DNA of 64,000 nucleotides from contig JBEIQD010000001.1 of assembly GCA_040376695.1 (NCBI GenBank), positions 80,726 to 144,725 of the forward strand. The letters are read 5' to 3'. Below are positions 24,601 through 57,881 of the stretch, one piece after another. This DNA comes from Candidatus Nomurabacteria bacterium (GTDB lineage Bacteria; Patescibacteriota; Minisyncoccia; Phycocordibacterales; UBA5272). The position numbers and the translations under genes are program-made. The notes beneath the pieces were generated by a model. It ran no database searches and was not told where the DNA came from. It was given only the letters and a program-made list of their open reading frames with translations. How positions within the stretch are numbered: the stretch's first letter is position 1; every line of letters starts with the position of its first letter.

Positions 24601-25224
24601 TTATCTTAGTTTGTTTTGTACAACTCGCTCAAACTTTGATGCAATGATTGCGGTTATTGTAGAAATAAGAAGTATAAAAAGCCCTACAGCGACTCCACCA
24701 GCTATGTCTTCTTCTGGGCGAACTATAAATAAGTAAGCTAATGGTGCGATAACAAAAGCAATAAGAGCTACTGCGCATCGTTTTAGAGTATGTAAAGCTT
24801 TTATCGTCGAAGGTGAAAACATTTTATTTTCTCGTACGTGACCTAGTATTTTCAATATTTGATAGAGTCCAATAAAAAATGCAATTGACGCTGTATACAC
24901 ATATATCAGAAATGGGTCTTTGAAGTAAACTTCGAAAGCTGTGGCATTTATGTTTCTGCCTTCAAAGTGTGGTTCCACAAGCATGAAAGTAAAAGTAATA
25001 ATTCCCAAAAGTATAGTTAGTATCTGAAAAAAGAGTAATGAAACTTTTTTCACCACTTCGTTCTTTTTTGAATATAAATCAAGGAGCGGCAGAATAATAA
25101 TCCAAATACAAGTTATGTAGAGCCATGTGTTTTCGTACTGTGTGTCTTTCAAGATTATCGCTGAAACAACTATTGCTACTGAAACAATGAGTGAAAGTAT
25201 TATTTTAAATATTTCTCTGTTCAT
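24601..25224 (-). CDS. hypothetical membrane protein
   Basis: 207 aa, 6 TM. Confidence 0.45.
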   Translation of the reverse strand: MNREIFKIILSLIVSVAIVVSAIILKDTQYENTWLYITCIWIIILPLLDLYSKKNEVVKKVSLLFFQILTILLGIITFTFMLVEPHFEGRNINATAFEVYFKDPFLIYVYTASIAFFIGLYQILKILGHVRENKMFSPSTIKALHTLKRCAVALIAFVIAPLAYLFIVRPEEDIAGGVAVGLFILLISTITAIIASKFERVVQNKLR

Positions 25225-35215: not shown

Positions 35216-35620
35216 ATGAAAAAAACATCTATTATAGTACTTTCGTTACTCGGGCTTATTGTTATTGGTGGAATTGTGTGGGCTTATTCAAATTACAAAG
35301 CTTACGCCCCAACTACATACATAGTAGAGACTGAAACTGGAACAACAACTATTGATACGACAACTAAGACTGAAACCCCTGGATCTCCGACATACACCAT
35401 GACAGATGTGGCTGCGCATAACAATGCAACAAGTTGCTACACGGTGATAAGTGGCAAGGTATACGATCTTACTATGTGGGTTGCTATGCACCCTGGAGGA
35501 AAGACTGCAATTCTTTCATTGTGTGGAGTGGATGGTACAGAAAGATTTAACAAAAAGCACGGATCGGATTCAAAACCAAATACTACACTTACTCGTTTTA
35601 AGATTGGCGTACTCAACTAA
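35216..35620 (+). CDS. membrane-anchored cytochrome b5-like heme-binding domain protein
   Basis: YTMTDVAAHNNATSCYTVISGKVYDLTMWVAMHPGGKTAILSLCG: cyt-b5 fold with HPGG heme-ligand motif. N-terminal TM. Confidence 0.7.
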   Translation: MKKTSIIVLSLLGLIVIGGIVWAYSNYKAYAPTTYIVETETGTTTIDTTTKTETPGSPTYTMTDVAAHNNATSCYTVISGKVYDLTMWVAMHPGGKTAILSLCGVDGTERFNKKHGSDSKPNTTLTRFKIGVLN

Positions 35621-35629: not shown

Positions 35630-36058
35630 ATGAGCGATATTCTTTTACCTCTTCACCTGATTACATTAGGTTTCATTTTTTGGACGATTATTCACGCTGA
35701 TCATCTTGCTTTTAATTGGATACGTGGAAAAGTCGCCACTCTTCCAAAAGAAAAAGTACAAAAATACCATCGCAATACTTGGATGGGGCTCGGTGGAATG
35801 ATTCTTACTGGTTTTCTTTTGTTCTGGCCTATGCGTGAGTTCTTACTTGGCCGACCGCAGTTCTACGCAAAAATGGCTTTTGTTGTAACCCTCGTCGCTA
35901 ACGGATTTGTTATCGGACATTTACAGAAGATCGCACTCCTCAAATCATTTAAGCAGTTAACTTTCAAAGAAAAAATACCACTCTTCATTTCTGGTGGTGT
36001 TTCAACACTTGCCTGGATTGGCGCTGCTCTCGGTGGCCTTTTCCTGATTCCTGATTAA
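35630..36058 (+). CDS. hypothetical membrane protein, co-transcribed with the cyt b5-like gene
   Basis: 142 aa, 4 TM, with several conserved-looking His (HADH, YHRN, IGHLQK). No family recognised. Confidence 0.45.
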   Translation: MSDILLPLHLITLGFIFWTIIHADHLAFNWIRGKVATLPKEKVQKYHRNTWMGLGGMILTGFLLFWPMREFLLGRPQFYAKMAFVVTLVANGFVIGHLQKIALLKSFKQLTFKEKIPLFISGGVSTLAWIGAALGGLFLIPD

Positions 36059-38925: not shown

Positions 38926-40200
38926 CTAATTACGAAAGGGTTTACCGATAACTGTTTTACCTCCCATAAACGGTACCAACACATCAGGAACCTTAATTGT
39001 TCCGTCTGCCTGCTGATAATTTTCAATAATTACAGTTACAAGACGAGGTGTAGCTGCAGCGGTGTTGTTAAGTGAATGAGCGTAGCGAAGTTTCCCTTCA
39101 GTGTCTTTGTAACGAATATTAAGTCGACGAGTTTGGAAATCATGGAAATAACTTGCTGAATGAGTTTCTCTGTACTTGCTCTGTGACGGCATCCAAGCTT
39201 CAATGTCATACTTCTTCACTTGTCCGAGTCCAAGATCTCCTCCGCAATTAATAACTGTATGGTACGGGAGATTAAGTTCTTCCATCATAGATTCAGCAAG
39301 TGTTCTGATTTCTTCATGCAAAGCAACCGATGTCTCGTGGCTAGCTTCACAGAGAATAACTTGTTCACATTTATAAAACTCATGAACACGCACCAGACCG
39401 TTAACATCTTTTCCGTGGCTTCCTGCTTCTTTTCTGAAACACGGACTCCATACAATATATTTCTTAGGTTCAGCTAATCCATCAAGTATCTCATCTGAGT
39501 GATAAAACATTGTTGCAACCTCCCCTGTTCCTGCTAAATAATCATTTCCATCTTTATAGAGATCATCCTCTCCCTGTGGAAGATAGCCTGTTCCTAGGAG
39601 AGTCTCACGCTTAACAAGAGATGGCACAAGCATAGGAGTGAACCCTTTCCCTTGCCAACGTTGCATTACATAATTCCAAATAGCCATTTCAAGCATCGCC
39701 CCGTCATTTTTCAAGAAGTATCCTCTGAAGCCTGATGTCTTTGTTCCACGTTCAAAATCAACAAGGTCACTTTGTACCATGAGTTCAATATGATCAAGCG
39801 GAGTAAAAGAAAAATCTTTAATTTCCCCCCATGTTTTTACTTCCACATTATCTTCGTCTGACTTTCCTTCTGGAACTGTCATGTCTGGAATGTTTGGAAC
39901 AGACAACATAAGCGTTCTCCAAGTCTTCATTACCTCCTCAAGCTCATCTTCTTGTGTTTTAAGTTCATCCTTTACCTTCTTCATGGCATCAATAAGTTCC
40001 TGGCGGGTGTGAGCGTCTGCCTTTGAAATAGCCTCGCTGGCAGCGTTTTGTTCAGCTCGGAGACTTTCAACTACTTTCAAGATTTCAAGGCGTTTTGTAT
40101 CTGAAGCAATAAGATCGTCAACATTAAATGACAAGTGTTTTTTAGAAGCGGCGGCACGAATAAGGTCACTTTGTTCACGGATGAATTTAATGTCTAACAT
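38926..40200 (-). CDS. serS: serine--tRNA ligase
   Basis: N-terminal coiled-coil arm. Class II motifs ...FRKEAGSHGKDVNGLVRVHEF... and ...TAAATPRLVTVIIENYQ. Confidence 0.9.
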   Translation of the reverse strand: MLDIKFIREQSDLIRAAASKKHLSFNVDDLIASDTKRLEILKVVESLRAEQNAASEAISKADAHTRQELIDAMKKVKDELKTQEDELEEVMKTWRTLMLSVPNIPDMTVPEGKSDEDNVEVKTWGEIKDFSFTPLDHIELMVQSDLVDFERGTKTSGFRGYFLKNDGAMLEMAIWNYVMQRWQGKGFTPMLVPSLVKRETLLGTGYLPQGEDDLYKDGNDYLAGTGEVATMFYHSDEILDGLAEPKKYIVWSPCFRKEAGSHGKDVNGLVRVHEFYKCEQVILCEASHETSVALHEEIRTLAESMMEELNLPYHTVINCGGDLGLGQVKKYDIEAWMPSQSKYRETHSASYFHDFQTRRLNIRYKDTEGKLRYAHSLNNTAAATPRLVTVIIENYQQADGTIKVPDVLVPFMGGKTVIGKPFRN

Positions 40201-40238
40201 GTCCTTTATTCTAACAGATAGTAGCTCCTTTATGAAGC

Positions 40239-40970
40239 TTGTTTATAAGGATATCTAGGAAAACAGATTTACAGGATATACTGGTCATAATGACAGAGCG
40301 AGACACCTTAGAGGAAGATATTAAGAGCTCCACGCCTCATATCGTTACCCACCAGGAAAAGTATAGTAAACACCCTAAAGGATTTTCAGATTTTATAGCA
40401 AAATCAACCGTACACCTCTCAGCAGGTATAGCCGATTTTTTATTCCAAGAGCGCTATTGTCACCGCGCTGTAGTTCTGGAAACGGTTGCGGCTGTTCCAG
40501 GTATGGTAGGAGGACTTCTTCAACATTTAAAATCGTTACGCTTCATACGGGATGACCGCGGATGGATTCACACCCTCTTAGCTGAAGCAGAAAATGAGCG
40601 AATGCATCTACTGATTTATAGCGAGATAGCAAAACCCTCTACGTTAGAAAGAATTCTTATTATGGTGGTTCAGTTTTTCTTTTATCATTTGTATTTTCTC
40701 CTGTATCTTATCAGTGCGAAAACAGCTCATCGTGTTGTTGGATACTTTGAGGAAGAAGCAATTCATAGCTATAAACACTATCTACAACTGGTAGAAGAAG
40801 GTAAACACGAAAACATACCAGCTCCAATAAGTGCTATTACGTATTGGGAACTTCCTGAAGATGCACGTCTTATGGATGTCATCAAAGCAACCATCAAGGA
40901 TGAAATGTACCACCGAGACACCAACCATGCCTTTGCTGACGATGTTGCAGGAACAAAACTCTGGAGTTAG
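40239..40970 (+). CDS. aox: alternative oxidase (AOX; di-iron carboxylate ubiquinol oxidase family)
   Basis: HRAVVLETVAAVPGMVGGLLQHLKSLR...GWIHTLLAEAENERMHLL...YLISAKTAHRVVGYFEEEAIHSY...DEMYHRDTNHAFAD: all four AOX iron-ligand motifs (LET, NERMHL, EEEA.H, DE..HRD.NH). Confidence 0.8.
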   Translation: MFIRISRKTDLQDILVIMTERDTLEEDIKSSTPHIVTHQEKYSKHPKGFSDFIAKSTVHLSAGIADFLFQERYCHRAVVLETVAAVPGMVGGLLQHLKSLRFIRDDRGWIHTLLAEAENERMHLLIYSEIAKPSTLERILIMVVQFFFYHLYFLLYLISAKTAHRVVGYFEEEAIHSYKHYLQLVEEGKHENIPAPISAITYWELPEDARLMDVIKATIKDEMYHRDTNHAFADDVAGTKLWS

Positions 40971-40971: not shown

Positions 40972-41010
40972 AACAAAAATCACCATCGAAAGATGGTGAT
41001 TACTTTGTTT
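40972..41010. terminator. bidirectional intrinsic terminator aatcaccatc-gaaa-gatggtgatt
   Basis: 10-bp stem with flanking A/T tracts. Confidence 0.6.
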
Positions 41011-41018
41011 CTCTAAGA

Positions 41019-41177
41019 CTAGAGAGCTGCTGGAGTAACTTCTGCGGCTACAACTTCTTCTTCCGCTACTGGTGTAGTTTCAGTTGATTCTGTAGGAATT
41101 GCAGTTTCCTCAACTACTGGAGTGTCTGTTGCTGGAACTTCTTCAGTAATAGGAGTTGTGATGATTTCGTCTGACAT
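41019..41177 (-). CDS. 52-aa acidic Thr/Glu/Pro/Val-rich low-complexity peptide (doubtful)
   Basis: MSDEIITTPITEEVPATDTPVVEETAIPTESTETTPVAEEEVVAAEVTPAAL. No RBS seen. May be non-coding. Confidence 0.15.
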   Translation of the reverse strand: MSDEIITTPITEEVPATDTPVVEETAIPTESTETTPVAEEEVVAAEVTPAAL

Positions 41178-41254
41178 AGATTTGTTTTGAAAATGGGTAA
41201 AGTCGAGCGCGTATCATAGCACTTCTAGGACTCTAAAGCAATTAGAGCTCTAAG

Positions 41255-46226: not shown

Positions 46227-47885
46227 TTATTTTGTATCAATATGACTCCAAGCAAACTTCTTATCTCCATACACTTTCTTTCCTGGATTTAATATATGAA
46301 GTGGGTCAAAAATATCTTTTGTCTTTTCAAACAACTTAATTACCTCAGATGAAAACATTTGAGAAAGATACGCTGTACGAAGTAGCCCGTCGTTGTGCTC
46401 TCCAGACATTGATCCATCATACTCGAATACAAGTGCGTATACTTCATCCATAAGCTTGTGAAGCGTGTCTACAATTCCCTCTTTATGAATATCAATGAGC
46501 GGAATGATGTGGAAGTTTGCGTCTCCCATATGCCCTGCCACTGTGTAGATGAGATCATATTTTGAAAAAATAACTTCGAGTTTAGGAAGAAACTCTGGAA
46601 GATCTTTCGTGTGTACAACAATATCATCGATAGTTGGAGCTGTTCTGTATCCTTGGAGTTTTTGACGAAGGAGATTAAAGCTCTCACGGCGAAACGTCCA
46701 ATATTTCTTCGACTCACTTTGAGAATGCGTCATTTTAATAGGAAGATTAAATTTCTGCATATCTTCGTACGCAGCTTTTACTTGTTGTTCAACTGATTCT
46801 TCGGTATCCCCTGCAAATTCTGCCATAAGAATTATCTTTGGAACTCCACCAGTAAGCGCCATCCAAAACTCTGGTAGAAATTGTAATCCAAGTGTAAACA
46901 TATTGCCGCCCATACGAATAGCGATGTCTTTAAAGAATTTGATAGCTATTTTAAACGTGTGATCATCATAGGACTCAAGTGTTTCAGGTTTATGTTCCAG
47001 TAACTTTGGAATTATTTCTCCTAGTTGTGTCGTAGATGGCACAAACATCACAAGCATTCTTGAATGTGTCTGCGGTTTAACACCGGTTAAGGTAGCAGAG
47101 CTGACACAGGCAAGTGTGCTCTGACTTCCAACAACTAACTTTGAAAGATCTAGGGTTTCTGTGGCCTTATCATACACATTCCATAAATAATACCCTGAAG
47201 AATTTTTTGTTACGGTTGGTTTTGCCTTCTGTAGTAGGTCATAGTTTTCTTTAACAAGCGCCAAAACTTCTCTGTGAATGCGCCCACTTTCGGTTTGTTC
47301 TTCTAGTTTTGCTGCGAGCTTTTCCTCACGAAGCGCCATCAAGGTATCTTCTTCTCCGTTCGCAAAGACAACTGAGAGAGATTGAACGTATTTTTCTGTC
47401 TTTCCATACGTAAGCGTTTTTTCTCCTCCTGAGTTATTGGAGACAATACCTCCAATTGCAGCAAGTTCGCGAGACGCTGGATAGCTTGGCATAAGCCAGC
47501 CCTTAGCTAGGGTTTCTTTTTCAAAATCTCTGTAATATACCCCAGGTTCTGCTACAGCTTCTGTTTCTGTGGTAGAAAGTACATGGTTCATGTACTTAGT
47601 AGTGTCGACCACAATTGATTCTGAGAGTGGCCCACCGGTCATACAGGTTCCCGCGGCGCGCATAGTAACTGATATGTCTATGCCTTCAGATTTTTTTATA
47701 TGCACATATGTAACAAGCTTTACTATATCTTCTTTATTTTGTGGATACACAACGATTTGAGGTTTGAGATAAAAAAGACTCGTATCTCGCGCTACTTTTT
47801 CACGATCAACATCCAATACTGAAACATCCCCTGTAATTCTTGTTCGTAAGTCTTTAGCAATATCCGTGTAGAGAGTGTCATTCAT
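46227..47885 (-). CDS. FAD-linked oxidase (GlcD / D-lactate dehydrogenase-like; FAD_binding_4 plus FAD-oxidase C-terminal domain)
   Basis: ...PQIVVYPQNKEDIVKLVTYV...RAAGTCMTGGPLSESIVVD (FAD-binding), C-terminal ...HNDGLLRTAYL...FDPLHILNPGK. Confidence 0.75.
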   Translation of the reverse strand: MNDTLYTDIAKDLRTRITGDVSVLDVDREKVARDTSLFYLKPQIVVYPQNKEDIVKLVTYVHIKKSEGIDISVTMRAAGTCMTGGPLSESIVVDTTKYMNHVLSTTETEAVAEPGVYYRDFEKETLAKGWLMPSYPASRELAAIGGIVSNNSGGEKTLTYGKTEKYVQSLSVVFANGEEDTLMALREEKLAAKLEEQTESGRIHREVLALVKENYDLLQKAKPTVTKNSSGYYLWNVYDKATETLDLSKLVVGSQSTLACVSSATLTGVKPQTHSRMLVMFVPSTTQLGEIIPKLLEHKPETLESYDDHTFKIAIKFFKDIAIRMGGNMFTLGLQFLPEFWMALTGGVPKIILMAEFAGDTEESVEQQVKAAYEDMQKFNLPIKMTHSQSESKKYWTFRRESFNLLRQKLQGYRTAPTIDDIVVHTKDLPEFLPKLEVIFSKYDLIYTVAGHMGDANFHIIPLIDIHKEGIVDTLHKLMDEVYALVFEYDGSMSGEHNDGLLRTAYLSQMFSSEVIKLFEKTKDIFDPLHILNPGKKVYGDKKFAWSHIDTK

Positions 47886-47900: not shown

Positions 47901-48509
47901 TTAGTTGCCTTTGGAAATACTTGCTGCTTTTCGCTCAAGCTCAGTAGCTGTGCGTATATATCTTTCATTTCCTTGTGGAACAGTAGAAGTATGTTTACTG
48001 TCATATATATCTTCTGCGATATCCCACAAATCTCTTTCTTCTGTTATCCATTTTTCACCAAATTTCTTCATAGAAATGATTTTAGAATACCCTTGCATAG
48101 TTTTCTTTCCATTTTTAACAAGAAAATATTCATTAAAATAGGACATAGCTAATTCACGTACTGTTAAGTAGACAGGGTCACGATACTGCAACACAGCATG
48201 ATTTGTTTTGCTGATTGCTCCCCAATAGCCATTTTCTTTAAACAAAGCAACTATATGATCATCATCTTCTTTATCTACTTTAAGATTCAGAAGTAGAGGT
48301 TTTCTTCCTTGTAACATAAGCGCTGTTGCCGCAAACATTGCCCCTTCTATACAATGAGCCTTCTTCTCCTGAAGTACACGTCGCGGAGACATGCATGTTT
48401 CACCCCTCTTTTCAAAATTAAAAGAAATTGAATCTAAGTAATCTTGTATCTTAGATGGGGTATTTAATTTTTTAAAGAAATCTTCCTCAGATTTCGTAAG
48501 TCGCAACAT
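47901..48509 (-). CDS. hypothetical protein with papain/transglutaminase-like Cys-His arrangement
   Basis: KAHCIEGAMFAATALML...DDDHIVALF...: candidate catalytic Cys and His in the spacing typical of transglutaminase-like cysteine peptidases. Weak. Confidence 0.35.
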   Translation of the reverse strand: MLRLTKSEEDFFKKLNTPSKIQDYLDSISFNFEKRGETCMSPRRVLQEKKAHCIEGAMFAATALMLQGRKPLLLNLKVDKEDDDHIVALFKENGYWGAISKTNHAVLQYRDPVYLTVRELAMSYFNEYFLVKNGKKTMQGYSKIISMKKFGEKWITEERDLWDIAEDIYDSKHTSTVPQGNERYIRTATELERKAASISKGN

Positions 48510-48543
48510 ACAAGAAGTATATCAAGACTTACTATGTTCTTGG

Positions 48544-49089
48544 TTATCTTTTAGATACTCGAAAGATAAACCTGTAATCAGACTCAGAAATAGTTTTCTT
48601 AGATTCTCGTTCTGGACGTACAGCAACAAGCGTAATTGCTTCTGTTTCTGTCGTAATAGTTCCACCAAGTGCAATTGTTTCAGTAGCTGTGCCCATACCG
48701 CTTTCAATCTTTATCTTAACTTTTACAGTTCCTGCCTGGATACACTGCACATCTATCGGACAACGACTATCTTCTACAATTGATAGCACGGTAATCTTTT
48801 CCGCCACTGGAATAATTTGTATATTTAATTTTGCCTCAATAGTTACAGCGTCCTTTGGTGTAGACGTTGAGGTTGGAATTGGGCATACAAATTGACAATT
48901 AGGTCCAGATCTCCCTACCCATGATCCATCAGAGCACTGTTTAGCATCCATAGTACACATCACTTCTCCTGTAGGTTCACCTTTTACAACTGAAGAAGCT
49001 TTTTGTGAAAAGTTCCAAGCTCCGTATGCAAGAAGAGCTAACACTGCCACACCTATAATTGCTAACACTATGTTTTTATTTGAGTTCAT
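48544..49089 (-). CDS. hypothetical secreted protein
   Basis: Signal peptide, Cys-containing, 181 aa. Confidence 0.4.
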   Translation of the reverse strand: MNSNKNIVLAIIGVAVLALLAYGAWNFSQKASSVVKGEPTGEVMCTMDAKQCSDGSWVGRSGPNCQFVCPIPTSTSTPKDAVTIEAKLNIQIIPVAEKITVLSIVEDSRCPIDVQCIQAGTVKVKIKIESGMGTATETIALGGTITTETEAITLVAVRPERESKKTISESDYRFIFRVSKR

Positions 49090-49182
49090 GGTTTTTAGTT
49101 ATTAGTAATGACGTTATAGATAAAGTATATCTTACACATATAAAATTCCCCACATGTGGGGAATTTTATAACCAAGGGGTTG

Positions 49183-49734
49183 CTAGTTCATGTTGTAATG
49201 ACGCACATCCACTGCTCCATGGTTCATAAACACATCTTCAGTGCTTGTAGGAGTTCCTCGTGCAATGACGAGCACATCTCCGCGTCGTACATGGTCTTCA
49301 TAGAGTTGCACGTCCTGCTTTTCGATACCAAGATTAGTAAGTGCTCCGATTAGTCCACCAGCAGCAGCTCCTGTGGCCGCTCCAGCAACCGCAGTTGCGG
49401 CTACTCCAGTAAAACCAAGTGCGGCAGCCAAAGGCCCTGCAACTATTAGTGTCCCAAGTCCTGGAAGCACTCCATTCGCAACAACGAGACCTGCGATACC
49501 TCCGATAATAGCCCCAGTTGTTGCTCCAGTAGCTGCACCTTGACCGATCTTATCTCCAGACTGTCCATCTGTAATGGTACCTTTATCATTTATATATACA
49601 TATGATAGGTCAGATTCGTTTACACCAAACTGGCGAAGTTCATTAAGGGCACTTTCCGCAGAAGCGTGAGTTGTAAATACTCCAATTGTTGTAATCATAG
49701 TGTGTATAGTTAGTTTGTCCGTTAATTCCCACAT
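49183..49734 (-). CDS. general-stress-protein-like (YflT/DUF1269-type N-domain plus glycine-zipper C-domain)
   Basis: MITTIGVFTTHASAESALNELRQFGVNESDLSYVY..., then GAATGATTGAIIGGIAGLVVANG... Gly-zipper. Confidence 0.45.
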   Translation of the reverse strand: MWELTDKLTIHTMITTIGVFTTHASAESALNELRQFGVNESDLSYVYINDKGTITDGQSGDKIGQGAATGATTGAIIGGIAGLVVANGVLPGLGTLIVAGPLAAALGFTGVAATAVAGAATGAAAGGLIGALTNLGIEKQDVQLYEDHVRRGDVLVIARGTPTSTEDVFMNHGAVDVRHYNMN

Positions 49735-49776
49735 ACGTGAGGTATATCTATGTAGACGTTCCTTCTATACTTTTAC

Positions 49777-50373
49777 TTACACCGCATTTGAGACATTTGT
49801 TAAAAGAAGCGCCATAGTAAGATCCCCAAGAAGCAGGAAAACAGCAAATTGCCGATATGAATATCCACTCACCGCAAGTAGGGCGAGAATAATATCATTT
49901 GGGAATGGAGCAAAAGCGGTGTATGAAAAAATCATTACATACACAATCCAACTCGGCGTGACGTACAGCCATTTCCAAATTTTTCTAAACACATGCTCCC
50001 ATTTTTTTGTAATATCCACCAATATGTGTCGTACTTTTGTTATAACAAAATAAAATAATGAGTCACTTATAAAAAGACCAATTCCTCCTATTACACCTAG
50101 AACAAGTGGATTAACCCCGCCGTGCGCCAAAGCAACAAGAGCGGCATACAGCGATGTTCCCGTGATAGAAGAAAAACCTCCTATAACAGCCAACATAAAT
50201 GCTGCGAAATATGTATTCTCTATTCCAATGTCATTCACCAATTCATCTACGGGATAAAAATGAAAGAATAGTGCCCATCCAATCAAAACAAGAAGAACAA
50301 GAGCGATAACGCCATAGAATTTTTTCTTTTTATCCAGCTTGTACATGTCTATACTGACGCCAGCGAAAGACAA
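49777..50373 (-). CDS. hypothetical polytopic membrane protein
   Basis: 198 aa, 5-6 TM. Confidence 0.4.
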   Translation of the reverse strand: MSFAGVSIDMYKLDKKKKFYGVIALVLLVLIGWALFFHFYPVDELVNDIGIENTYFAAFMLAVIGGFSSITGTSLYAALVALAHGGVNPLVLGVIGGIGLFISDSLFYFVITKVRHILVDITKKWEHVFRKIWKWLYVTPSWIVYVMIFSYTAFAPFPNDIILALLAVSGYSYRQFAVFLLLGDLTMALLLTNVSNAV

Positions 50374-50376
50374 TAC

Positions 50377-50883
50377 TTACAGAGATGATTTTTCTGCTGC
50401 TTCAATTTTTCTATTTTCAGCTGTCCAACCAATCATGTTCACAAGTATCTGCACTGCAGTAGCAACTCCTGAAATCGCGAGAATAAGAATTGGTAGCCAT
50501 AGTAACTCAGTTGCGATAAAGTACCCGTAGGTTACAAAAAGCGCAGCCCAAATGCTGAAACACCAAGGACAGATGAGAAGCTCATATGCAGTACGTAGCG
50601 GACCACTGGTTCGTTCTACTTTTGTGAAGTACGTAATTCCTTCCTGAGAATAACTTTCTTCTGCATGCTGAAACATGTCACGCAAGAATCGAGTTATCTT
50701 GTCATATACAAATAGTCGAGTAAGGCGAAATGTAGCAAGCACAATAAGAATAAGATCAAACAAAGGAATAGCTGTGGGTAATTGTCCGTTTACACGATGA
50801 AGCGAATAAATCATTCCAACTGCAACAACTAAAAAGAACCCCGAGAACATAACATTCCAAAAATTTTGATCATCTTTTTTCAT
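50377..50883 (-). CDS. DUF1360-family membrane protein
   Basis: LFDLILIVLATFRLTRLFVYDKITRFLR...LICPWCFSIWAAL matches the DUF1360 pattern. Confidence 0.6.
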   Translation of the reverse strand: MKKDDQNFWNVMFSGFFLVVAVGMIYSLHRVNGQLPTAIPLFDLILIVLATFRLTRLFVYDKITRFLRDMFQHAEESYSQEGITYFTKVERTSGPLRTAYELLICPWCFSIWAALFVTYGYFIATELLWLPILILAISGVATAVQILVNMIGWTAENRKIEAAEKSSL

Positions 50884-50938
50884 ACCTCAAGTATATCATT
50901 TCTCCACTATCCAAAAAAAACACACCCCGAAAGGTGTG

Positions 50939-52063
50939 TTATCTATTTTCTTCATTTCGCTTCTCTTTCAAAGCTTCCAAAACTGAATGAACTTTCTGCA
51001 GTGCTACAATCCGAGCTTTACGCTCATGTTTAACCACATACATAGCGGTATCGGCGCGCTTAATCAGATCACCATAATCCTGCAAAGCAAGATCAATTTC
51101 AGACTGAACATCAACCCCACTTACAATGCCTGATAGTTCCGTAACCACAATTTCGTCCTTGGTTTTTTCAGGTACAGCTCTTAAGTCTTCTGACTCAAGA
51201 ACAGCAACACCTAAAGAAGCTGACGGAACAATAGTTACCCCTTCTGCGGGAGTAAACACTACCTTGCTAAGGAAAAGTTCAATCCTAGAAGCAATCTCAA
51301 AAGCCTCTTTTTCCGTTGTTTCAGGCAGCACCACAATAAACTCATCCCCTAAGCGAACGATGAAGTCTACTGTACGTATAGCGTGACGGATTGCTTTTTC
51401 AATTTTGCCTAACAGGATATCAGCCACAGGGTGCCCGAAGTTGGTGTTAACAAGCTTGAAACCATCCAGGTCTGCAAAGATACACGCTGTGGGAGTTTTG
51501 TGTCTTTTGGCACGATTCCACACGGGAACCCACAAATTATTCCCACCTCGACGTGTATGTGCGTCAGTAATGGTGTCAGTGTCTGTTTCTTCCATTCCTC
51601 TCAATCTTCGTTCGGCTCCTGCGATGTGCTCAATAAATAATCCAGTCAGGTTGTAATGATTTTTTGTAGCTTCTGCTTTCTTAACAGGGGCTCCTTTTTT
51701 CGCTTTTTTAACCCCTTTTCCTTTCGTGAAATAAGTAGCGCCCATGCGGACAGCTCGTGTAAGTAAGCAGTGATCGTTGTCAGCAGTAACCAACATAAAC
51801 TCAATTGGAAACCGTGTAATTTCCTTTAGCTCAACTATCAGCTGCAGCCCAGTGATTTTTGGTAAATACTGTTCAACGAGGAAGATCGCTGGGCCCAACA
51901 AATCATTAACAATATCTCTTGCCTCACGTTGTGAACTTGCTATCAGTACAGCATATCCTTCACTTTCAATGAGTGGTTTTGCTAACTGCAGGTAGTCGTC
52001 ATTGGTATCAACCAGGACGACTGTGGGTTTGACCCACTTCCTCATCCTTGTCGACATAATCAT
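50939..52063 (-). CDS. response-regulator-like protein: pseudo-receiver (Asp to Glu at phospho-acceptor) plus degenerate GGDEF domain retaining the RxxD I-site
   Basis: REC: VVLVDTNDD...PAIFLVEQYLP (E where D54 is expected), ...FMLVTADND...YFTKG. GGDEF region: ...FADLDGFKLVNTNFGHPVADILL...RTVDFIVRLGDEF-IVVLP (RYGGDEF reduced to RLGDEF; RTVD matches RxxD). Confidence 0.7.
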   Translation of the reverse strand: MIMSTRMRKWVKPTVVLVDTNDDYLQLAKPLIESEGYAVLIASSQREARDIVNDLLGPAIFLVEQYLPKITGLQLIVELKEITRFPIEFMLVTADNDHCLLTRAVRMGATYFTKGKGVKKAKKGAPVKKAEATKNHYNLTGLFIEHIAGAERRLRGMEETDTDTITDAHTRRGGNNLWVPVWNRAKRHKTPTACIFADLDGFKLVNTNFGHPVADILLGKIEKAIRHAIRTVDFIVRLGDEFIVVLPETTEKEAFEIASRIELFLSKVVFTPAEGVTIVPSASLGVAVLESEDLRAVPEKTKDEIVVTELSGIVSGVDVQSEIDLALQDYGDLIKRADTAMYVVKHERKARIVALQKVHSVLEALKEKRNEENR

Positions 52064-52156
52064 GACGTACTCCTTTGATGTGTATGAAATTCAATGAACA
52101 GCGTATGACCCATTTCTACAACAAAATAGCGCTAATGTCAATCATTGCTACTATGC

Positions 52157-52957
52157 CTACACTTGTAGAGCCGGATTATTTACAAAATAGTTACACCACT
52201 CTTTATATTCTTTACTTGGAAGCGCATGAGTGAAATAAAATCCTTGTACCACTTGGCACTCCATTTCTTTTAGTAATGCAAGCTGCTCTTCTGTTTCAAC
52301 CCCTTCTGCCACAATATCAATATCAAGCGCTCGAGCAAGGAGAATAATCGAATACATAATCTTCGTGTCTCGCTCGCTCTTCAAACTTTGCTGAATAAAC
52401 TGCCCATCAATCTTAAGTCCGTCCACAGGAAACTGTCGTAGATGGCTTAAATTCGCAAATCCTGCACCGAAGTCATCAATAATAATCCGCACACCAAGTT
52501 CTTTTAGTTCTAAAAGTGTTTTCCTTGTTGCTTCTGGGTCGTCCAGCGCCATGCTTTCAGTAATCTCAAGCTCCAAATCATGTGGATCTAAACCCGACTC
52601 AACCAACACGTGTGCAACCTTCTTTGAAAAATCTCTGTCCGTTAATTGCACAAGTGAAAGGTTCACCGTCACCTTGAAAAAGGCATACCCTTCATCTTTC
52701 CATTTCTTACTCTGCATACAGCTTTCACGCAAAACAAAATAACCGAGCTGGACAATTGCTCCTGTTTTTTCTGCAGTTGTTATAAAACTATTTGGATGAA
52801 GAAGCCCCAACTGCGGATGATTCCACCGCACGAGCGCTTCGCCTGAAATAATTGTATTCTTTTCTTTGTCTATAATTGGTTGGTAATAGACTTCAAATTG
52901 TCTCAACTCTACAGCTTGTAATATATCTTTCTTAGAAAAAGTATCTTTTGACTTCAT
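52157..52957 (-). CDS. EAL-domain c-di-GMP phosphodiesterase
   Basis: YYQPII...EALVRW..., ELEITES, DDFGAGFANLSHL, GLKIDGQFIQ, IVAEGVETEEQ: full complement of EAL catalytic motifs. Confidence 0.85.
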   Translation of the reverse strand: MKSKDTFSKKDILQAVELRQFEVYYQPIIDKEKNTIISGEALVRWNHPQLGLLHPNSFITTAEKTGAIVQLGYFVLRESCMQSKKWKDEGYAFFKVTVNLSLVQLTDRDFSKKVAHVLVESGLDPHDLELEITESMALDDPEATRKTLLELKELGVRIIIDDFGAGFANLSHLRQFPVDGLKIDGQFIQQSLKSERDTKIMYSIILLARALDIDIVAEGVETEEQLALLKEMECQVVQGFYFTHALPSKEYKEWCNYFVNNPALQV

Positions 52958-53082
52958 GTGTATTGTTAACTAAATAAGGGCATTAAGAAAACTCCGGTTC
53001 GCAAATTTCCTTGTTTTCTCTGTTCTATATATAGCATGACGCGCCATAAACATAATTCTTACTAATCTATAAAGAAAATTCC

Positions 53083-53817
53083 TTAAATAATATCCTTGTG
53101 CAAAAGAGCATCCTCTTTTGGGTGAGTTCTATTATCTCGAGTAAAGCTTTTCTTAAAGTGCTGCCAAAAGACCCCTCTGTGTTCAATTATTTCAAATACA
53201 AGGACAATACCCAAAGCAAGCACCGCTCCCACAGCAGCAACCGCAAGGTCTTTAGTGGTATCGAACGGATCATTTCCTCCAATAAATAAATATCCCGCCG
53301 CTTCACCATACTGAAGCACAGTCACCCATTCGAATACTTCATAGAGCGCACCAAGTGCAAGAATCATACTAAATGGCATACTGTATGCCCAAAATCCTTT
53401 CATCTTTGCTATACGGAGACAGAGTTCTCGCAATGGATACACAATAAGAAAGCCAAATGAAAAGTGAACCAACTTATCATACATGTTGCCGCCGAGACCA
53501 GAAACTTCACTTAAGGTGAACCCAAATGGTACTGACCCGTAGTTATAGTGCGCCCCCATCAGATGAAGAATAAAGAATAGAGTAATAAGAGATAGTGAAA
53601 GTTTTGAAAAGCGAATATAGCGAATTAGTAAAAGGTAAATAATAGGAATAAACAAAAGCACCATCTTATTTTCTAAAAACCAATTAGTAGGACTTGCAGG
53701 GTCCCATACTGACCACGCCCATACACCTAAAAATAACGTGAGCAAAAAGTGCACATAGTACTTACCAACATATACAGATACCTCTTTCATATTTCTTATA
53801 GACGAATTAGAAACCAC
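53083..53817 (-). CDS. YjdF/DUF2238-like membrane protein
   Basis: ...NMYDKLVHFSFGFLIVYPL...YEVFEWVTVL... motifs and 6 TM, as I recall for DUF2238. Confidence 0.45.
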   Translation of the reverse strand: MVSNSSIRNMKEVSVYVGKYYVHFLLTLFLGVWAWSVWDPASPTNWFLENKMVLLFIPIIYLLLIRYIRFSKLSLSLITLFFILHLMGAHYNYGSVPFGFTLSEVSGLGGNMYDKLVHFSFGFLIVYPLRELCLRIAKMKGFWAYSMPFSMILALGALYEVFEWVTVLQYGEAAGYLFIGGNDPFDTTKDLAVAAVGAVLALGIVLVFEIIEHRGVFWQHFKKSFTRDNRTHPKEDALLHKDII

Positions 53818-53821
53818 TATA

Positions 53822-54079
53822 TTACAAGGCTCTCCTTCTAGGCCTACTCATTGTTGCTATGTAGAGTTCTTCTACCTTTTGTCGCGCCCATGGTGTTTTC
53901 CTGAGAAAAGCCAAACTAGAAGAAATGCTCGGGTTGTTCAAGAAGCACTTAATCTTGATCTCTGCACCAAGTTCTGCCCATCCATACTCTTCTACCAAAA
54001 ACTCAACGACAGACTGGAGAGTCTTTCCGTACAACGGGTCGTTAGGATGTTCATTCATGCATCTCAGTATATCAGACAC
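53822..54079 (-). CDS. VF530-family (DUF2132) protein
   Basis: PLYGKTLQSVVEFLVEEYGWAELGAEIKIKCF..NPSISSSLAFLRKTPWARQKVEELY: strong match to the VF530 pattern. Confidence 0.7.
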   Translation of the reverse strand: MSDILRCMNEHPNDPLYGKTLQSVVEFLVEEYGWAELGAEIKIKCFLNNPSISSSLAFLRKTPWARQKVEELYIATMSRPRRRAL

Positions 54080-54124
54080 GGTTAACCCATAGACGATTCT
54101 TCTTGTAAGGAATATACTTTATAT

Positions 54125-54580
54125 ATGAACACAACAACTACTATCACCGGAGAATTAGCTTCAATTAACCAACCCCTTGGAGTCGTTAGTACAAATAACA
54201 AGGATGGTAATCCGCAATCAGCAAGCGTGTACTACATTAACGATGAGAACCTTAACATCTTTTTTGTTACTCGTTCAGAAAGTCGTAAGTATAAAAATAT
54301 ACAAAACAATCCTCATGTTGCTTTCACTATCACAAGTGAACACCCTCCTAAGACAATTCAACTTGAAGGCACAGCCGCTGAAGTGATGGACCCAACCGAA
54401 CAAAGTAATTATTTCGACAAACTCGTTGCAAAAGCAACTGAAAGTAATTTTATGCCTCCAGTGAGCCAGATGGTAACTGGCGAAATGGTATTTATGAAAA
54501 TTACCACAACGTGGGCACGCTGTGGTAATTTCGAAGTAATGAAGGAAGGAGAAAAGTTTGTAGAAACTACCCTACAGTAA
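54125..54580 (+). CDS. pyridoxamine 5'-phosphate oxidase-like FMN-binding split-barrel protein
   Basis: ...LGVVSTNNKDGNPQSASVYYINDENLNIFFVTRSESRKYKNIQNNPHVAF: PNPOx-like family pattern. Confidence 0.65.
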   Translation: MNTTTTITGELASINQPLGVVSTNNKDGNPQSASVYYINDENLNIFFVTRSESRKYKNIQNNPHVAFTITSEHPPKTIQLEGTAAEVMDPTEQSNYFDKLVAKATESNFMPPVSQMVTGEMVFMKITTTWARCGNFEVMKEGEKFVETTLQ

Positions 54581-54584
54581 TTCT

Positions 54585-55505
54585 CTATCTAAACGTAACG
54601 TTTCCACTATCGAACTTAAGATCAAAAATAAGTTCTCCTTTGCTTGTGAAGTGGAAAGCCGATGTATCACGAATCAGTTCTGAGAACACTTTTTCCTGTG
54701 AATCTTCACAGAACATAAGCGTAGAAGCTATTGGACCAAATGTAATACGTTCTTCTTCGCGCGCATACTTTCCACTCAAACCGTTACAATCAGTTGTAGC
54801 AAAAAATGTTCCGTCAGTTTTGAATGTAATCGTGAACGCTCCAGCTTTCTTAGGAGTAACTGTTCGCTCGTCATTATAGAGCGTGCTAATCCATACCCAC
54901 GGCTTCATTTCAAGACTCATACGTGCTGGATCCGCTTCTCCCTCGAAATCCTGAACCACCTCCCCAAATTGCATTGAAGGAATATCAAGAATCAATCGAA
55001 TACTTTTACCTACTGAAGGCTGCACGACAAAACTATCTGTAGGTCTACGATCTGCATAATTAACTATCACAGACTTTCCTGGACCCGATTCTGTTGTTTG
55101 TGGAGCAATACGATCTCCAAGTAACACTCCTTCAGAGCCAACATACCCGCTCTCAGTGTTAAGAGCAGCGACAACATAGTAAAACGTTCCGCTTCCTCCT
55201 GTTGTTTGAGTGAGGAGAAAAACATTATCTTCTCTCCCGTCATCATTTAGATCCTTACGAACCTCATTACCAAAATAACGAGTGCTTACAACTGACGCAG
55301 AGTCAGCTACAGCCACTTCAGATACACCATTAATCAATCGAACGCGCTTTCCGTCGATAATGTACTCTGCATTCTTATAATCAGTAGCAACGTATGCTTG
55401 CTTTTCATTATAAATATACTTATTAAAAGCAAAAAATCCTGCAACAAGCGCAGCAATCACAATTAAACCAACCACTAAGCCTATAAATACTTTATTTGAT
55501 GTCAT
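54585..55505 (-). CDS. secreted protein with C-terminal META/HslJ domain (paralog class of 32444..32932)
   Basis: N-terminal anchor. C-terminus ...FTITFKTDGTFFATTDCNGLSGKYAREEERITFGPIASTLMFC. Confidence 0.55.
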   Translation of the reverse strand: MTSNKVFIGLVVGLIVIAALVAGFFAFNKYIYNEKQAYVATDYKNAEYIIDGKRVRLINGVSEVAVADSASVVSTRYFGNEVRKDLNDDGREDNVFLLTQTTGGSGTFYYVVAALNTESGYVGSEGVLLGDRIAPQTTESGPGKSVIVNYADRRPTDSFVVQPSVGKSIRLILDIPSMQFGEVVQDFEGEADPARMSLEMKPWVWISTLYNDERTVTPKKAGAFTITFKTDGTFFATTDCNGLSGKYAREEERITFGPIASTLMFCEDSQEKVFSELIRDTSAFHFTSKGELIFDLKFDSGNVTFR

Positions 55506-55549
55506 GTGTATATGATATCACACAGAAAGAGCTGTTCTGGGCTCCTCAA

Positions 55550-55999
55550 CTATTTCAAACTACCACTTTCAGATAATGCTTTGTAAACAGAGTTACTCCA
55601 TTTTTTCACATTTTCAACATAACTTTCTAAACCTCCTTCCACTACGTCCTGCGCCGTCACCGCCCACACAGGCGCTGTGTCATAGCTTCCGTGGTCCTCT
55701 GATGTTCCAGTTATTTTCCAATCACGAACGTTTGAAGCCAGACGAGCTCTATTTCTTTCATCATGTTCTTTAAAAGAAAATCCTTCTTCCAAAAACTCCA
55801 CAAGAAACCCCTTAGCATCTTCAAGTCCTTTTTGAGAATACACACTTGGATGCTGTAAATTATAATTCACAACAGTAAGATGATGAATCTGTCCCACACC
55901 GAGGAAGTCTTCGAAATCCCAGGCAATCATTATGTTGAGGTAATCCCTACACGTTACCCCTTCTGGTAATGAAACTCCACACTCGGAACATGCAGACAT
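55550..55999 (-). CDS. hypothetical protein with N-terminal CxxC pair
   Basis: MSACSECGVSLPEGVTC.... 149 aa. Confidence 0.4.
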   Translation of the reverse strand: MSACSECGVSLPEGVTCRDYLNIMIAWDFEDFLGVGQIHHLTVVNYNLQHPSVYSQKGLEDAKGFLVEFLEEGFSFKEHDERNRARLASNVRDWKITGTSEDHGSYDTAPVWAVTAQDVVEGGLESYVENVKKWSNSVYKALSESGSLK

Positions 56000-56006
56000 A
56001 TACTAA

Positions 56007-56423: not shown

Positions 56424-56432
56424 AAATACTGT

Positions 56433-56891: not shown

Positions 56892-56922
56892 AAGTATATT
56901 TGTAGTATATCTAGGCAATATA

Positions 56923-57426: not shown

Positions 57427-57441
57427 TGTAGCAGACTATCT

Positions 57442-57855: not shown

Positions 57856-57881
57856 ATAAAAGATAGTACCACAATCCTTAT

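Follow-up and report, generated by a model that had tools for sequence, protein, structure and literature searches.

An intact alternative oxidase conserved beside serS in Paceibacteria, a putative oxygen sink in cells without an evident respiratory chain

Introduction

CPR bacteria (Patescibacteria) usually figure in the literature as symbionts that live strictly by fermentation and have no electron transport, and, to our knowledge, their handling of oxygen has been discussed solely for the cytochrome bo3 and bd oxidases of a few lineages. An intact gene for an alternative oxidase (AOX) in one of these ultra-small organisms, which are believed to have no respiratory chain, is noteworthy. Such a gene was predicted in a 64-kb stretch of DNA from Candidatus Nomurabacteria (hereafter the window), part of a contig of 0.2–1 Mb. 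The original prediction joined AOX and two neighbors, a membrane-anchored cytochrome b5 protein and an FAD-linked oxidase, into a minimal route from an organic donor to O2. This raises the question of what a quinol oxidase could do in a cell of this kind, where its gene came from, and which of its neighbors, if any, could supply it with electrons.

Results

The window contains an intact AOX gene

The predicted ORF (40239..40970) is present on the forward strand and matches the Pfam AOX profile PF01786 over positions 10–216 of 216 (E=3.6e-71, 239.7 bits; cut-off 22.7). Structures of the trypanosome AOX (TAO; 3vv9 and others) are matched too, at E=1e-41 with the sequence alone and at 3e-53 with a profile. 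We rejected the TTG that opens the maximal ORF as the start, since it is merely the first possible start codon. Translation probably begins at the ATG at position 40290, because an identical 226-aa product is called on an independent public contig (Logan L001) and homologs of 225–228 aa open at the aligned Met. All residue numbers of the window AOX given below refer to this product. The gene contains no frameshifts or stop codons, and its GC content (0.416) and GC3 (0.352) are the same as those of the adjoining genes. It is monocistronic and transcribed divergently from serS, with a terminator-like hairpin beyond its stop codon (Table 1); no convincing match to a σ70 promoter for AOX was found in the intergenic region between the two genes.

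Table 1. Location of AOX and the features discussed with it in the window.
Feature	Position	Strand	Details
Cytochrome b5 protein, membrane-anchored	35216..35620 (from ATG)	+	PF00173 E=7e-19, 68.1 bits (cut-off 23.7)
Multi-pass membrane partner of b5, 142 aa	35630..36058	+	9 bp downstream of b5; no Pfam/NCBIfam match
Seryl-tRNA synthetase (SerRS, serS)	38926..40200	-	From translation; Seryl_tRNA_N and tRNA-synt_2b found on orthologs (Pfam)
SerRS/AOX divergent intergenic region	40201..40289		89 bp; presumed promoters; read from sequence
Alternative oxidase (AOX) CDS	40290..40970	+	226 aa; maximal ORF 40239..40970 opens at TTG 40239
Terminator-like hairpin	40978..41001		8 nt past AOX stop; 10-bp stem, 4-nt loop, T-rich tails on both strands
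FAD-dependent D-2-hydroxyacid-dehydrogenase-like protein, 552 aa	46227..47885	-	PF01565 E=2.6e-25, PF02913 E=2.8e-42; candidate quinone-reducing AOX partner

All four motifs on which the prediction rested were found: LET (E64), NERMHL (E103, H106), EEEAIHSY (E154, Y161), and DEMYHRDTNH (E205, H208). In the alignment, these residues correspond, in this order, to TAO E123, E162, H165, E213, Y220, E266, and H269. A loss of iron ligands on careful alignment, the concern raised with the prediction, did not occur: the six di-iron ligands (E64, E103, H106, E154, E205, H208) are intact and invariant in 121 of 121 members of the CPR clade described below. The catalytic Tyr (Y161) is kept, as are the equivalents of TAO Y246 and W247 (Y185 and W186). 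The quinol/inhibitor pocket, formed in TAO by R118, L122, E123, A126, A216, and T219, consists of R59, L63, E64, A67, A157, and S160 in the window AOX. The T219S change is common to all bacterial AOX in the alignment, and the pocket residues are invariant in the 121 CPR-clade sequences and the same as in proteobacterial AOX. The hydrophobic segment noted previously also has its counterpart, with residues 121–143 corresponding to the membrane-binding helix region; neither a signal peptide nor a spanning helix is predicted.

An AlphaFold2 model of the protein (pLDDT 78.9) adopts the predicted four-helix-bundle di-iron carboxylate fold with membrane-binding helices, the latter also supported by hydrophobicity. 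In Foldseek it superimposes on TAO (PDB 3vv9 and 9kun) with TM scores of 0.81–0.83 and an rmsd of 2.1–2.4 Å (∼2.2 Å) at 39–40% identity. All ligands as well as TAO Y220, W247, R118, L122, A216, and D100 are retained, whereas the N-terminal targeting region of TAO is missing, eight residues are deleted before R118, and R96, T219, and L179 are replaced by Ala, Ser, and Glu, respectively. Taken together, the Pfam match, the complete set of ligands with the catalytic Tyr, and the predicted fold indicate that the ORF encodes a genuine, intact AOX.

Residue changes fixed in the CPR clade

The host belongs to the Paceibacteria/Parcubacteria (CPR): among the matches listed, the best homologs are named Candidatus Paceibacterota, Nomurabacteria, or Parcubacteria. 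Judged by these names, this is a reduced genome of CPR type, in agreement with the earlier impression. The CPR AOX proteins form a clade of at least 120 database clusters with 64–91% identity and 183–249 aa (218–249 aa in all but two). We distinguish lineage A, to which the window belongs, from lineage B, represented by loci L031 and L173.

At the position of TAO R96 (A45 in the window), the clade carries Ala in 120 and Ser in one of 121 sequences; Arg occupies it in all 48 proteobacterial and all 11 marine AOX compared. R96, D100, and E215 constitute a proposed proton network (PMC6204527, PMC6213860) that is conserved in most AOX and is not Pfam-defining. In the window AOX this network is incomplete, with D49 (D100) and E156 (E215) kept; across the clade, 114 of 121 sequences keep the D100 equivalent. 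Further changes fixed in the clade are R263 to Ile or Leu, F169 to Tyr, I262 to Thr, and A267 to Met (TAO numbering), and a C-terminal ...GTxLW extension also marks its members. Lineage B has E215 replaced by Gln besides. R96 is regarded as important (PMC6213860, PMC6204527), and in other AOXs its exchange for Ala is reported to lower activity drastically (PMC6213860). Since the clade carries Ala at a position where it is deleterious elsewhere, its activity or substrate may differ.

One alternative reading is therefore that the CPR clade has shifted its substrate or mechanism, the loss of R96 (and R263) adapting it to a reductant other than ubiquinol. This could be another quinol, probably a host-derived or low-potential one such as menaquinol or a rhodoquinol-like compound, or a non-quinol reductant. 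The absence of Arg at R96 from the entire clade, the fixed R263I/L, F169Y, and I262T changes, and E215Q in lineage B would agree with such a shift, as would a CPR stem that appears accelerated (distance to TAO 0.97 vs. 0.77 for proteobacterial AOX). A parallel exists in the anaerobe Blastocystis, whose AOX alters the same R96, D100, and E215 and for which use of rhodoquinol has been proposed (PMC6204527). However, R118, L122, E123, A126, E162, H165, E213, A216, S219, and Y220 are identical to those of proteobacterial ubiquinol oxidases, and D100 is mostly retained. Weighing both sides, we regard a substrate shift as unlikely, if worth keeping in mind.

Respiratory context

Pfam revealed no respiratory or quinone-biosynthesis gene among 82 window ORFs of at least 110 aa, and the ±10 kb flanks of AOX in related loci showed none either. 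In the window, this covers all ORFs of that size except three that overlap larger genes, together with shorter ORFs between 33 and 49 kb. Likewise, no quinone reductase of the classical type was seen in the 64 kb or in the ±10 kb flanks of the relatives. These results bear on a second alternative, in which AOX merely branches off a conventional respiratory chain whose genes lie in another part of the genome. It would be compatible with the window covering 64 kb of a much longer contig and with the cytochrome bo3 or bd oxidases and NADH dehydrogenase carried by some CPR lineages (PMC13293708, PMC9938205, PMC10031880). Against it stand the failure to find respiratory genes in the window or within ±10 kb of AOX at the CPR loci examined and a 2026 review according to which complexes I–IV are largely absent from the phylum (PMC13293708). 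We consider a side branch improbable.

A 2-hydroxyacid dehydrogenase recurs near AOX

The FAD-linked oxidase of the original prediction is indeed encoded in the window, with an FAD_binding_4 and an FAD-oxidase_C domain. The enzyme runs co-linear to the YdiJ model up to about position 540 (NF049975; positions 21–539 of 1018). The His-His-Glu motifs known from D-2-hydroxyacid dehydrogenases are preserved as GH452MGDANFH459 and SGE496H, which align with those of LctD, LDHD, and glycolate oxidase. In contrast to YdiJ, the whole C-terminal GlpC-like 4Fe-4S half is absent. Because its scores lie below the cut-offs of both YdiJ (228.8 vs. 1350 bits) and GlcD (TIGR00387; 182 vs. 568), we classify it merely as an FAD 2-hydroxyacid-dehydrogenase-like protein of the VAO/GlcD superfamily. 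A recognizable quinone- or membrane-coupling domain is missing. For the YdiJ-type D-2-hydroxyglutarate dehydrogenases of E. coli and Pantoea, the electron acceptor is itself unknown (PMC9504171), and only the FAD half of YdiJ is matched here; that the window enzyme donates electrons to quinone is hence something we infer.

Comparative evidence nevertheless favors the proposed link between this enzyme and AOX. In two CPR lineages whose genomic backbones differ, orthologs lie near AOX, at distances of 5.3 kb in the window, 3.8 kb in L002/3, 3.6 kb in L168, 1.0 kb in L171, 0.1 kb in L031, and 0.2 kb in L173, and are present on all eight AOX contigs of at least 90 kb. This proximity is confined to CPR, with no ortholog near AOX in any of 152 non-CPR loci. 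On the other side, the Fe-S half is missing, L172 has an ortholog without AOX nearby, and contigs of 911,576, 305,405, 221,743, and 182,078 bp that carry the dehydrogenase do not appear in the list of AOX matches. A 552-aa ORF adjoining AOX in L086, which we had suspected to be the FAD enzyme, proved to be a PIF1-like helicase.

AOX and VKOR form an apparent operon in lineage B

In both L031 and L173, AOX is directly followed, after a 1-nt gap, by a gene encoding VKOR (PF07884, E=7e-26), whose sequences contain the loop Cys pair (PPCS...GC) and the CIYC (CxxC) motif. The two genes thus appear to form an operon. VKOR is a quinone-reducing disulfide oxidoreductase, and the path from DsbB or VKOR via quinone to a terminal oxidase is the route of oxidative protein folding, as with E. 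coli DsbB and the bacterial VKOR homologs. The lineage B operon resembles this pathway in holding both a quinone-reducing and a quinol-oxidizing half. It differs in that a single operon unites the two steps and the oxidase is AOX, an arrangement for which a full-text literature search turned up no precedent. VKOR was absent from the window and the lineage A flanks by tblastn, DsbB was also not found in the window, and none of 31 proteins from a VKOR homolog search lay on a lineage A AOX contig. The link to VKOR can therefore not be claimed for the window's own lineage.

The cytochrome b5 pair looks like a separate module

Both the b5 gene and its predicted membrane partner are real ORFs (Table 1). 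The b5 protein has an N-terminal MKK followed by a transmembrane anchor, a Thr-rich linker, and two conserved Cys, and the motifs of its predicted axial heme-binding His, HPGG and KKHG, are conserved in five homologs. Hydrophobic regions of the partner comprise residues 2–23, 78–96, and 116–141 (Kyte-Doolittle). L085 and L002 share its H9, H22, H25, and H47; L006 keeps H9 and H47 alone, and a fragment in L167, without the N-terminal region, shows Tyr instead of H47.

A third alternative holds that this pair feeds electrons to AOX or receives them from it. Cytochrome b5 is the electron donor of other membrane di-iron enzymes in eukaryotes, the window has the pair ∼4.7 kb away from AOX, and L002/3, L085, and the P0024 locus have it in the corresponding slot, where L008 and L168 carry b5 without the partner. 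Yet the N-in signal anchor preceding the b5 domain implies that b5 faces outward, opposite to a monotopic AOX at the cytoplasmic face, and four housekeeping genes on the other strand separate the pair from AOX. Moreover, the pair is missing from this slot in L005, L007, L084, L166, and L167 (at least 5 of 13 related loci), all of which retain AOX, and no such pair occurs near AOX in lineage B or in any non-CPR locus. An MFS transporter gene lies directly upstream on the same strand, before the pair in L002 and before the partnerless b5 in L168. A role of b5 as AOX partner is thus very improbable, and the pair looks like a separate module. Of the proposed trio, the dehydrogenase has gained comparative support, while b5 drops out by topology and patchy synteny.

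AOX is inherited vertically beside serS after a probable old acquisition

SerRS and AOX diverge in the window, as they do at all 13 independent related loci from its lineage, and AOX identity across these loci (61–75%) tracks that of DnaX (56–87%) and SerRS (62–84%). As a constant divergent neighbor, SerRS marks vertical inheritance of AOX. These comparisons argue that the CPR AOX clade, besides being large, is under selection and vertically inherited beside serS.

A tree had been suggested for finding the donor lineage. In our neighbor-joining (NJ) tree, built on AOX sequences and with low backbone support, the CPR clade nests inside proteobacterial AOX, suggesting an old horizontal acquisition; a donor lineage was not picked out. 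Bootstrap support was 100% for the bacterial-type AOX clade and 71% for lineage A, and the mean distance to proteobacterial AOX was 0.52. A metagenome scan with the L031 AOX gave no close relatives; its matches, solely marine proteobacterial and eukaryote-like AOX, served in the tree and as a negative control. A single CPR AOX has been noted before as a probable transfer from Proteobacteria (PMC9540462). In the literature that we searched for AOX in Parcubacteria, CPR, or Patescibacteria, the enzyme is mentioned once, in passing; in the other CPR papers found, "AOX" meant arsenite oxidase, and Castelle 2017 does not mention the enzyme. In public databases, the CPR proteins already carry an AOX annotation.

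It is hardly credible that the window AOX is a horizontally acquired gene in decay, or proteobacterial DNA misplaced during assembly or binning: ∼60% identity to proteobacterial AOX (among the matches listed) and the R96A change, deleterious in other AOXs (PMC6213860), would suit such readings, but the gene shares its contig with CPR housekeeping genes in at least 13 independent assemblies, has a host-like base composition and an undisrupted reading frame, and belongs to a family with 100% conserved catalytic residues over 121 sequences, so that synteny and conservation effectively refute contamination or a pseudogene.

Discussion

We propose, with a probability of roughly 60%, that the gene encodes a functional monotopic di-iron quinol:O2 oxidoreductase of proteobacterial type. 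It would have been anciently acquired by an ancestor of the Paceibacteria, passed on vertically beside serS, and would serve as an oxygen sink that re-oxidizes the quinol of a probably scavenged quinone. At the cytoplasmic face of the membrane, AOX would oxidize membrane quinol and reduce O2 to water without pumping protons. In an otherwise fermentative cell without a chain, it could thereby scavenge oxygen or balance redox state by re-oxidizing the few quinone-reducing enzymes present. The best candidate for such an enzyme in the window's lineage is the nearby FAD-dependent D-2-hydroxyacid dehydrogenase (D-lactate or D-2-hydroxyglutarate type). Given the apparent co-transcription in lineage B, AOX would there also re-oxidize the quinol that VKOR generates during disulfide-bond formation. 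The quinone itself would probably be scavenged from the host together with lipids.

The function of proteobacterial AOX is known from enzymes such as those of Novosphingobium aromaticivorans and Vibrio fischeri. The window AOX shares with the proteobacterial enzymes 55–65% identity over the whole core (among the matches listed), the same length class without a mitochondrial presequence, identical di-iron ligands and quinol pocket, with Ser and Glu replacing TAO T219 and L179, respectively, and a common clade with 100% bootstrap. It differs in a host without an evident respiratory chain, in the R96A, R263I/L, F169Y, I262T, and A267M changes and the C-terminal extension of its clade, and in its CPR neighbors, serS and the dehydrogenase or, in lineage B, VKOR, none of which lies near the 152 non-CPR AOX.

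Two further systems are instructive. Like the window AOX, the Blastocystis enzyme has changed R96 and T219 and is kept without a cytochrome chain, where it is proposed to buffer transient O2 (PMC6204527). That AOX is eukaryotic, resides in a mitochondrion-related organelle with complex II as known reducer and rhodoquinone as known quinone, and carries D100N and E215H, at positions where the window AOX keeps both residues. In Saccharimonadia and other CPR, a lone cytochrome bo3 or bd quinol oxidase has similarly been read as a means of O2 detoxification without a full chain (PMC9938205, PMC13293708). Those oxidases are unrelated heme proteins and are electrogenic or proton-pumping, whereas AOX contains iron without heme and conserves no energy.

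A broader idea can be offered only tentatively. Paceibacteria that can make neither quinones nor a chain may run a minimal cycle on host quinone, which would be reduced by the 2-hydroxyacid dehydrogenase (in lineage B also by VKOR acting on surface proteins or pilins) and re-oxidized by the CPR-specific AOX. An enzyme lacking R96 and R263 and extended at its C-terminus might be retuned to a foreign quinone. Should this cycle exist, the AOX-VKOR operon would be a previously undescribed two-gene module for oxidative folding.

The AOX family itself is well known. Its fixed loss of R96 in the CPR clade offers enzymologists a natural variant. A large, conserved AOX clade suggests that many Paceibacteria meet oxygen, and it implies that a usable membrane quinone exists in organisms not credited with its synthesis. 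Concrete uses for such a quinone are suggested by the 2-hydroxyacid dehydrogenase that recurs near AOX and by the AOX-VKOR operon of lineage B, and whether CPR bacteria steal quinones from their hosts becomes a testable question.

Identity of the AOX gene and its product

The original prediction of an alternative oxidase (AOX) ORF with intact iron ligands was borne out by Pfam, alignment and structural modelling. In a Pfam search, PF01786 covers nearly its whole domain (E=3.6e-71), and the product matches the Trypanosoma brucei AOX (TAO) structures 3vv9, 9kun and 9m2a (E=1e-41 in a single-sequence search, 3e-53 in a profile search). The alignment recovers the published TAO ligand numbering: the di-iron ligands E64, E103, H106, E154, E205 and H208 of the 226-aa product correspond to TAO E123, E162, H165, E213, E266 and H269, none being lost, and Y161 corresponds to TAO Y220. 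Several quinol-pocket equivalents are also kept (R59=R118, L63=L122, A67=A126, A157=A216, S160=T219 in TAO). An AlphaFold2 model built from 67 homologues (mean pLDDT 78.9) fits TAO with a TM score of 0.81-0.83 and an rmsd of ~2.2 Å; the next best folds are ferritin-like proteins (E>0.4).

We consider ATG 40290 a more likely start than TTG 40239, since an independent public contig has a gene call for the exact 226-aa product and the aligned Met is the start of 225-228-aa homologues. The gene is separated by 89 bp from the seryl-tRNA synthetase (SerRS) gene, and the hairpin after its stop codon indicates that it is monocistronic.

Coordinates of the features discussed
Feature	Sequence	Position	Strand	Remarks
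Ferritin-like di-iron protein, 247 aa	window	21943..22686	-	Pfam E=1.6e-6
TrbC/VirB2-pilin-like small protein	window	24217..24585	-	adjoins next entry
DUF2975 membrane protein	window	24601..25224	-	
Cytochrome b5 protein	window	35216..35620		
Partner of cytochrome b5, 142 aa	window	35630..36058	+	no family match
SerRS	window	38926..40200	-	divergent from AOX
AOX, maximal ORF	window	40239..40970	+	Pfam AOX (PF01786)
Strong hairpin	window	40978..41001		3' of AOX stop codon
Acidic Thr/Glu/Pro/Val-rich ORF, ~53 aa	window	41016..41180	-	just 3' of AOX, other strand
FAD-linked oxidase	window	46227..47885	-	FAD_binding_4 + FAD-oxidase_C
Skewed segment	window	48000..58000		GC skew -0.13 to -0.19
Response-regulator GGDEF diguanylate cyclase	window	50939..52063	-	adjoins next entry
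Stand-alone EAL phosphodiesterase	window	52157..52957	-	
142-146-aa protein	L171	4764..5192	-	convergent downstream of AOX
142-146-aa protein	L002	12604..13044		
142-146-aa protein	L166	10697..11128		
ArsR/BigR-like (HTH_5), rhodanese and metallo-beta-lactamase-fold genes	L002/L003	13093..14403	-	
AOX among oxidative-stress genes	L086	5317..10157		metagenome contig
No called genes, 5.8 kb	L173	1229..7083		upstream of AOX-VKOR
Two type-IV-pilin-like (N_methyl) genes	L173	10401..11603		follow AOX-VKOR

Distribution and inheritance

The window carries housekeeping genes (CysRS, DnaB, RecR, L9, DnaX, Dus, SerRS) and many secreted or uncharacterised proteins. Its nearest AOX homologues bear the name "alternative oxidase [Candidatus Paceibacterota bacterium]", the nearest homologues of the FAD-linked oxidase are labelled Candidatus Nomurabacteria/Paceibacterota, and the GTDB matches listed belong to Parcubacteria or to MAGs labelled only as CPR. 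The genome belongs to the CPR (Patescibacteria/Minisyncoccota).

AOX homologues form at least 120 database clusters with 64-91% identity and lengths of 183-249 aa, all but two falling within 218-249 aa. The backbone Dus - FtsQ-like - SerRS <-> AOX was found in all 13 independent related loci inspected (L002/3, L004-L008, L084, L085, L166-L169, L171), usually preceded by DUF2914 and DnaX, and the gene table of the P0024 locus has the same order. At these loci AOX is 61-75% identical to that of the window, DnaX 56-87% and SerRS 62-84%. GC and GC3 of AOX are those of the adjoining genes, and none of the catalytic residues varies across the 121 clade sequences. Taken together, synteny, matched identities, host-like composition and invariant residues point to an AOX long established in the lineage, passed on vertically and kept by purifying selection.

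Among the GTDB matches listed, the nearest non-CPR AOX genomes are Alpha-, Beta- and Gammaproteobacteria (55-65% identity). Neighbour-joining trees (167 columns, 200 bootstraps) place all bacterial-type AOX in one group (100%), apart from TAO and the eukaryote-like sequences. The CPR clade of the window, lineage A, is monophyletic (71%), as is a second CPR lineage, B (L031, L173; 100%); their joint grouping reaches only 36%, and since the backbone lacks resolution we name no donor order. This placement agrees with a report of a single CPR AOX match, read as transfer from Proteobacteria (PMC9540462). Lineage A lies further from TAO than proteobacterial AOX do (0.97 vs 0.77), which suggests an accelerated CPR stem.

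A residue signature of the CPR enzymes

At the position of TAO R96, where the alignment is ungapped, 120 of the 121 lineage-A sequences have Ala and one has Ser; Arg is present in TAO and in all 59 proteobacterial and marine AOX examined. Also fixed in the clade are R263 to Ile/Leu, F169 to Tyr, I262 to Thr and A267 to Met (TAO numbers) and a C-terminal GTxLW extension. Lineage B shows Ala-Arg, the Arg having moved one position, together with E215 to Gln. R96, D100 and E215 belong to a proposed proton network and substrate-tail contact (PMC6213860, PMC6204527), and R96A is reported to reduce activity drastically in other AOX (PMC6213860). Given the strong conservation of all else in the clade, we take the R96-less signature as a probable adaptation rather than decay. 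The anaerobe Blastocystis alters the same residues, possibly for rhodoquinol (PMC6204527), and an altered quinol or substrate specificity of the CPR enzymes is conceivable, if unlikely, next to the retained quinol pocket.

The FAD-linked dehydrogenase

The GHxGDxNxH and GEH motifs of the FAD enzyme are common to LctD, LDHD and glycolate oxidase. It aligns co-linearly with the FAD half, at the N-terminus, of the YdiJ-type D-2-hydroxyglutarate dehydrogenase; the GlpC-like Fe-S half is missing, and the score is far under the equivalog cut-off. The distance to AOX is 5.3 kb in the window and, for the orthologues, 3.8 kb (L002/3), 3.6 kb (L168) and 1.0 kb (L171), with adhesins, CHASE2-cyclase/FecR pairs or recombinase islands as variable inserts. 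In lineage B, where the backbone is wholly different (RpsB and Tsf instead of SerRS), the orthologue stands directly next to AOX, divergently oriented, at 0.1-0.2 kb. No orthologue was found near AOX in 152 non-CPR AOX loci, 48 of which span 15 kb or more. Among AOX contigs of 90 kb or longer, all eight (775,158; 482,559; 347,184; 253,663; 200,588; 171,507; 144,417; 93,638 bp) recur at identical length among the FAD-enzyme matches, which places both genes on one contig in each case. The pairing has exceptions: L172 and a number of large contigs encode the FAD enzyme and no detectable AOX. Of the proposed role as electron donor to AOX via quinone, the recurrent, CPR-only proximity thus stands; donation to quinone is not established biochemically, because the Fe-S half is missing and the physiological acceptor of YdiJ itself is not established (PMC9504171).

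An apparent AOX-VKOR operon in lineage B

Both lineage-B loci carry a VKOR gene (PF07884, E=7e-26) one nucleotide after AOX. VKOR and DsbB carry electrons from protein thiols to membrane quinone, which a terminal oxidase must re-oxidise. From this general role, the operon would constitute a self-contained route from thiols via quinone to O2, and nothing else in this analysis speaks as strongly, if indirectly, for CPR AOX using a pool of membrane quinone. Neither the window nor the lineage-A flanks yielded a VKOR, so the operon bears on the window only by analogy. The pilin-like proteins encoded next in L173 may be disulfide-bonded VKOR substrates. The gene-free stretch upstream may be an rRNA operon.

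Genomic surroundings

Downstream of AOX is a hotspot of variation. The window has genes for a CAP-domain protein, a 981-aa adhesin and tRNA-Ala there; the acidic ORF has compositionally similar 60-66-aa counterparts, placed alike, in L002, L084, L085 and L167. CHASE2-guanylate/adenylate cyclase and FecR-like pairs stand just downstream of AOX in L084, L085, L166, L169 and P0024, and serine-recombinase islands in L084, L167 and L169. Eight lineage-A loci (L171, L002, L166, L004-L007, L167) share a conserved 142-146-aa protein, encoded downstream of AOX in convergent orientation, absent from the window and without a Pfam family. Read by eye, it seems to have two hydrophobic helices and, at the C-terminus, a charged tail. 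Its gene stands between AOX and the FAD enzyme in L171 and L002. Also between these two genes, L002/L003 carry an apparent cassette for detoxifying sulfide or persulfide, its metallo-beta-lactamase-fold protein being persulfide-dioxygenase-like. The L086 AOX (59% identical to the L031 query) has a peroxiredoxin gene upstream and MsrA and NADPH-dependent FMN reductase genes downstream.

Elsewhere in the window, the 247-aa protein weakly resembles aldehyde-deformylating oxygenase, DUF455, MiaE and R2-like oxidase, and is possibly a second O2-dependent di-iron enzyme of this small genome. The GGDEF/EAL neighbours predict c-di-GMP signalling in a CPR genome. The skewed segment has mostly minus-strand genes; GC skew is ~0 elsewhere.

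Proposed function of AOX

With a probability of about 60%, we propose that AOX would act at the cytoplasmic face as a non-electrogenic quinol:O2 oxidoreductase. It would serve as the oxygen sink of a chain-less fermenter and re-oxidise the quinone that the FAD 2-hydroxyacid dehydrogenase and, in lineage B, also VKOR would reduce. Respiratory complexes are reported largely absent in this phylum (PMC13293708), from which we infer that quinone is probably obtained from the host with lipids. No respiratory or quinone-biosynthesis genes were detected among the window ORFs scanned, and we regard it as improbable that AOX is a branch of a conventional chain encoded outside our view.

Coupling to cytochrome b5 is very improbable. 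The b5 ORF and its membrane partner exist as described, and the pair is also present in L002/3, L085 and the P0024 locus. However, its proposed part in the AOX route did not hold. The b5 domain is preceded by an N-in signal anchor with a Thr-rich linker and has two conserved cysteines, so it should face outward, whereas AOX shows neither a signal peptide nor a spanning helix. Between the pair and AOX stand four opposite-strand housekeeping genes, and the pair is gone from its slot in L005, L007, L084, L166 and L167, which keep AOX. In L002 the gene next upstream of the pair, and on its strand, encodes an MFS transporter; L168 has such a gene upstream of a partner-less b5 gene. We read the pair as a putative independent extracytoplasmic module. 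H9, H22, H25 and H47 of the partner, in or near hydrophobic segments, are kept in the two closest homologues (L085, L002) and in part in L006 and L167, and could bind haem or metal.

That AOX is a relic or an artefact is scarcely credible beside its clade-wide invariant catalytic residues.

The AOX family is textbook knowledge, and CPR proteins are already annotated as AOX in databases. One paper mentions a CPR match in passing; in searchable recent CPR reviews and papers AOX is not discussed, and a full-text literature search returned no report of an AOX-VKOR operon. Four features appear not to have been described before: how large the CPR clade is and that it is inherited vertically, its signature without R96, the recurrent pairing with a YdiJ-N-like dehydrogenase, and the AOX-VKOR operon.
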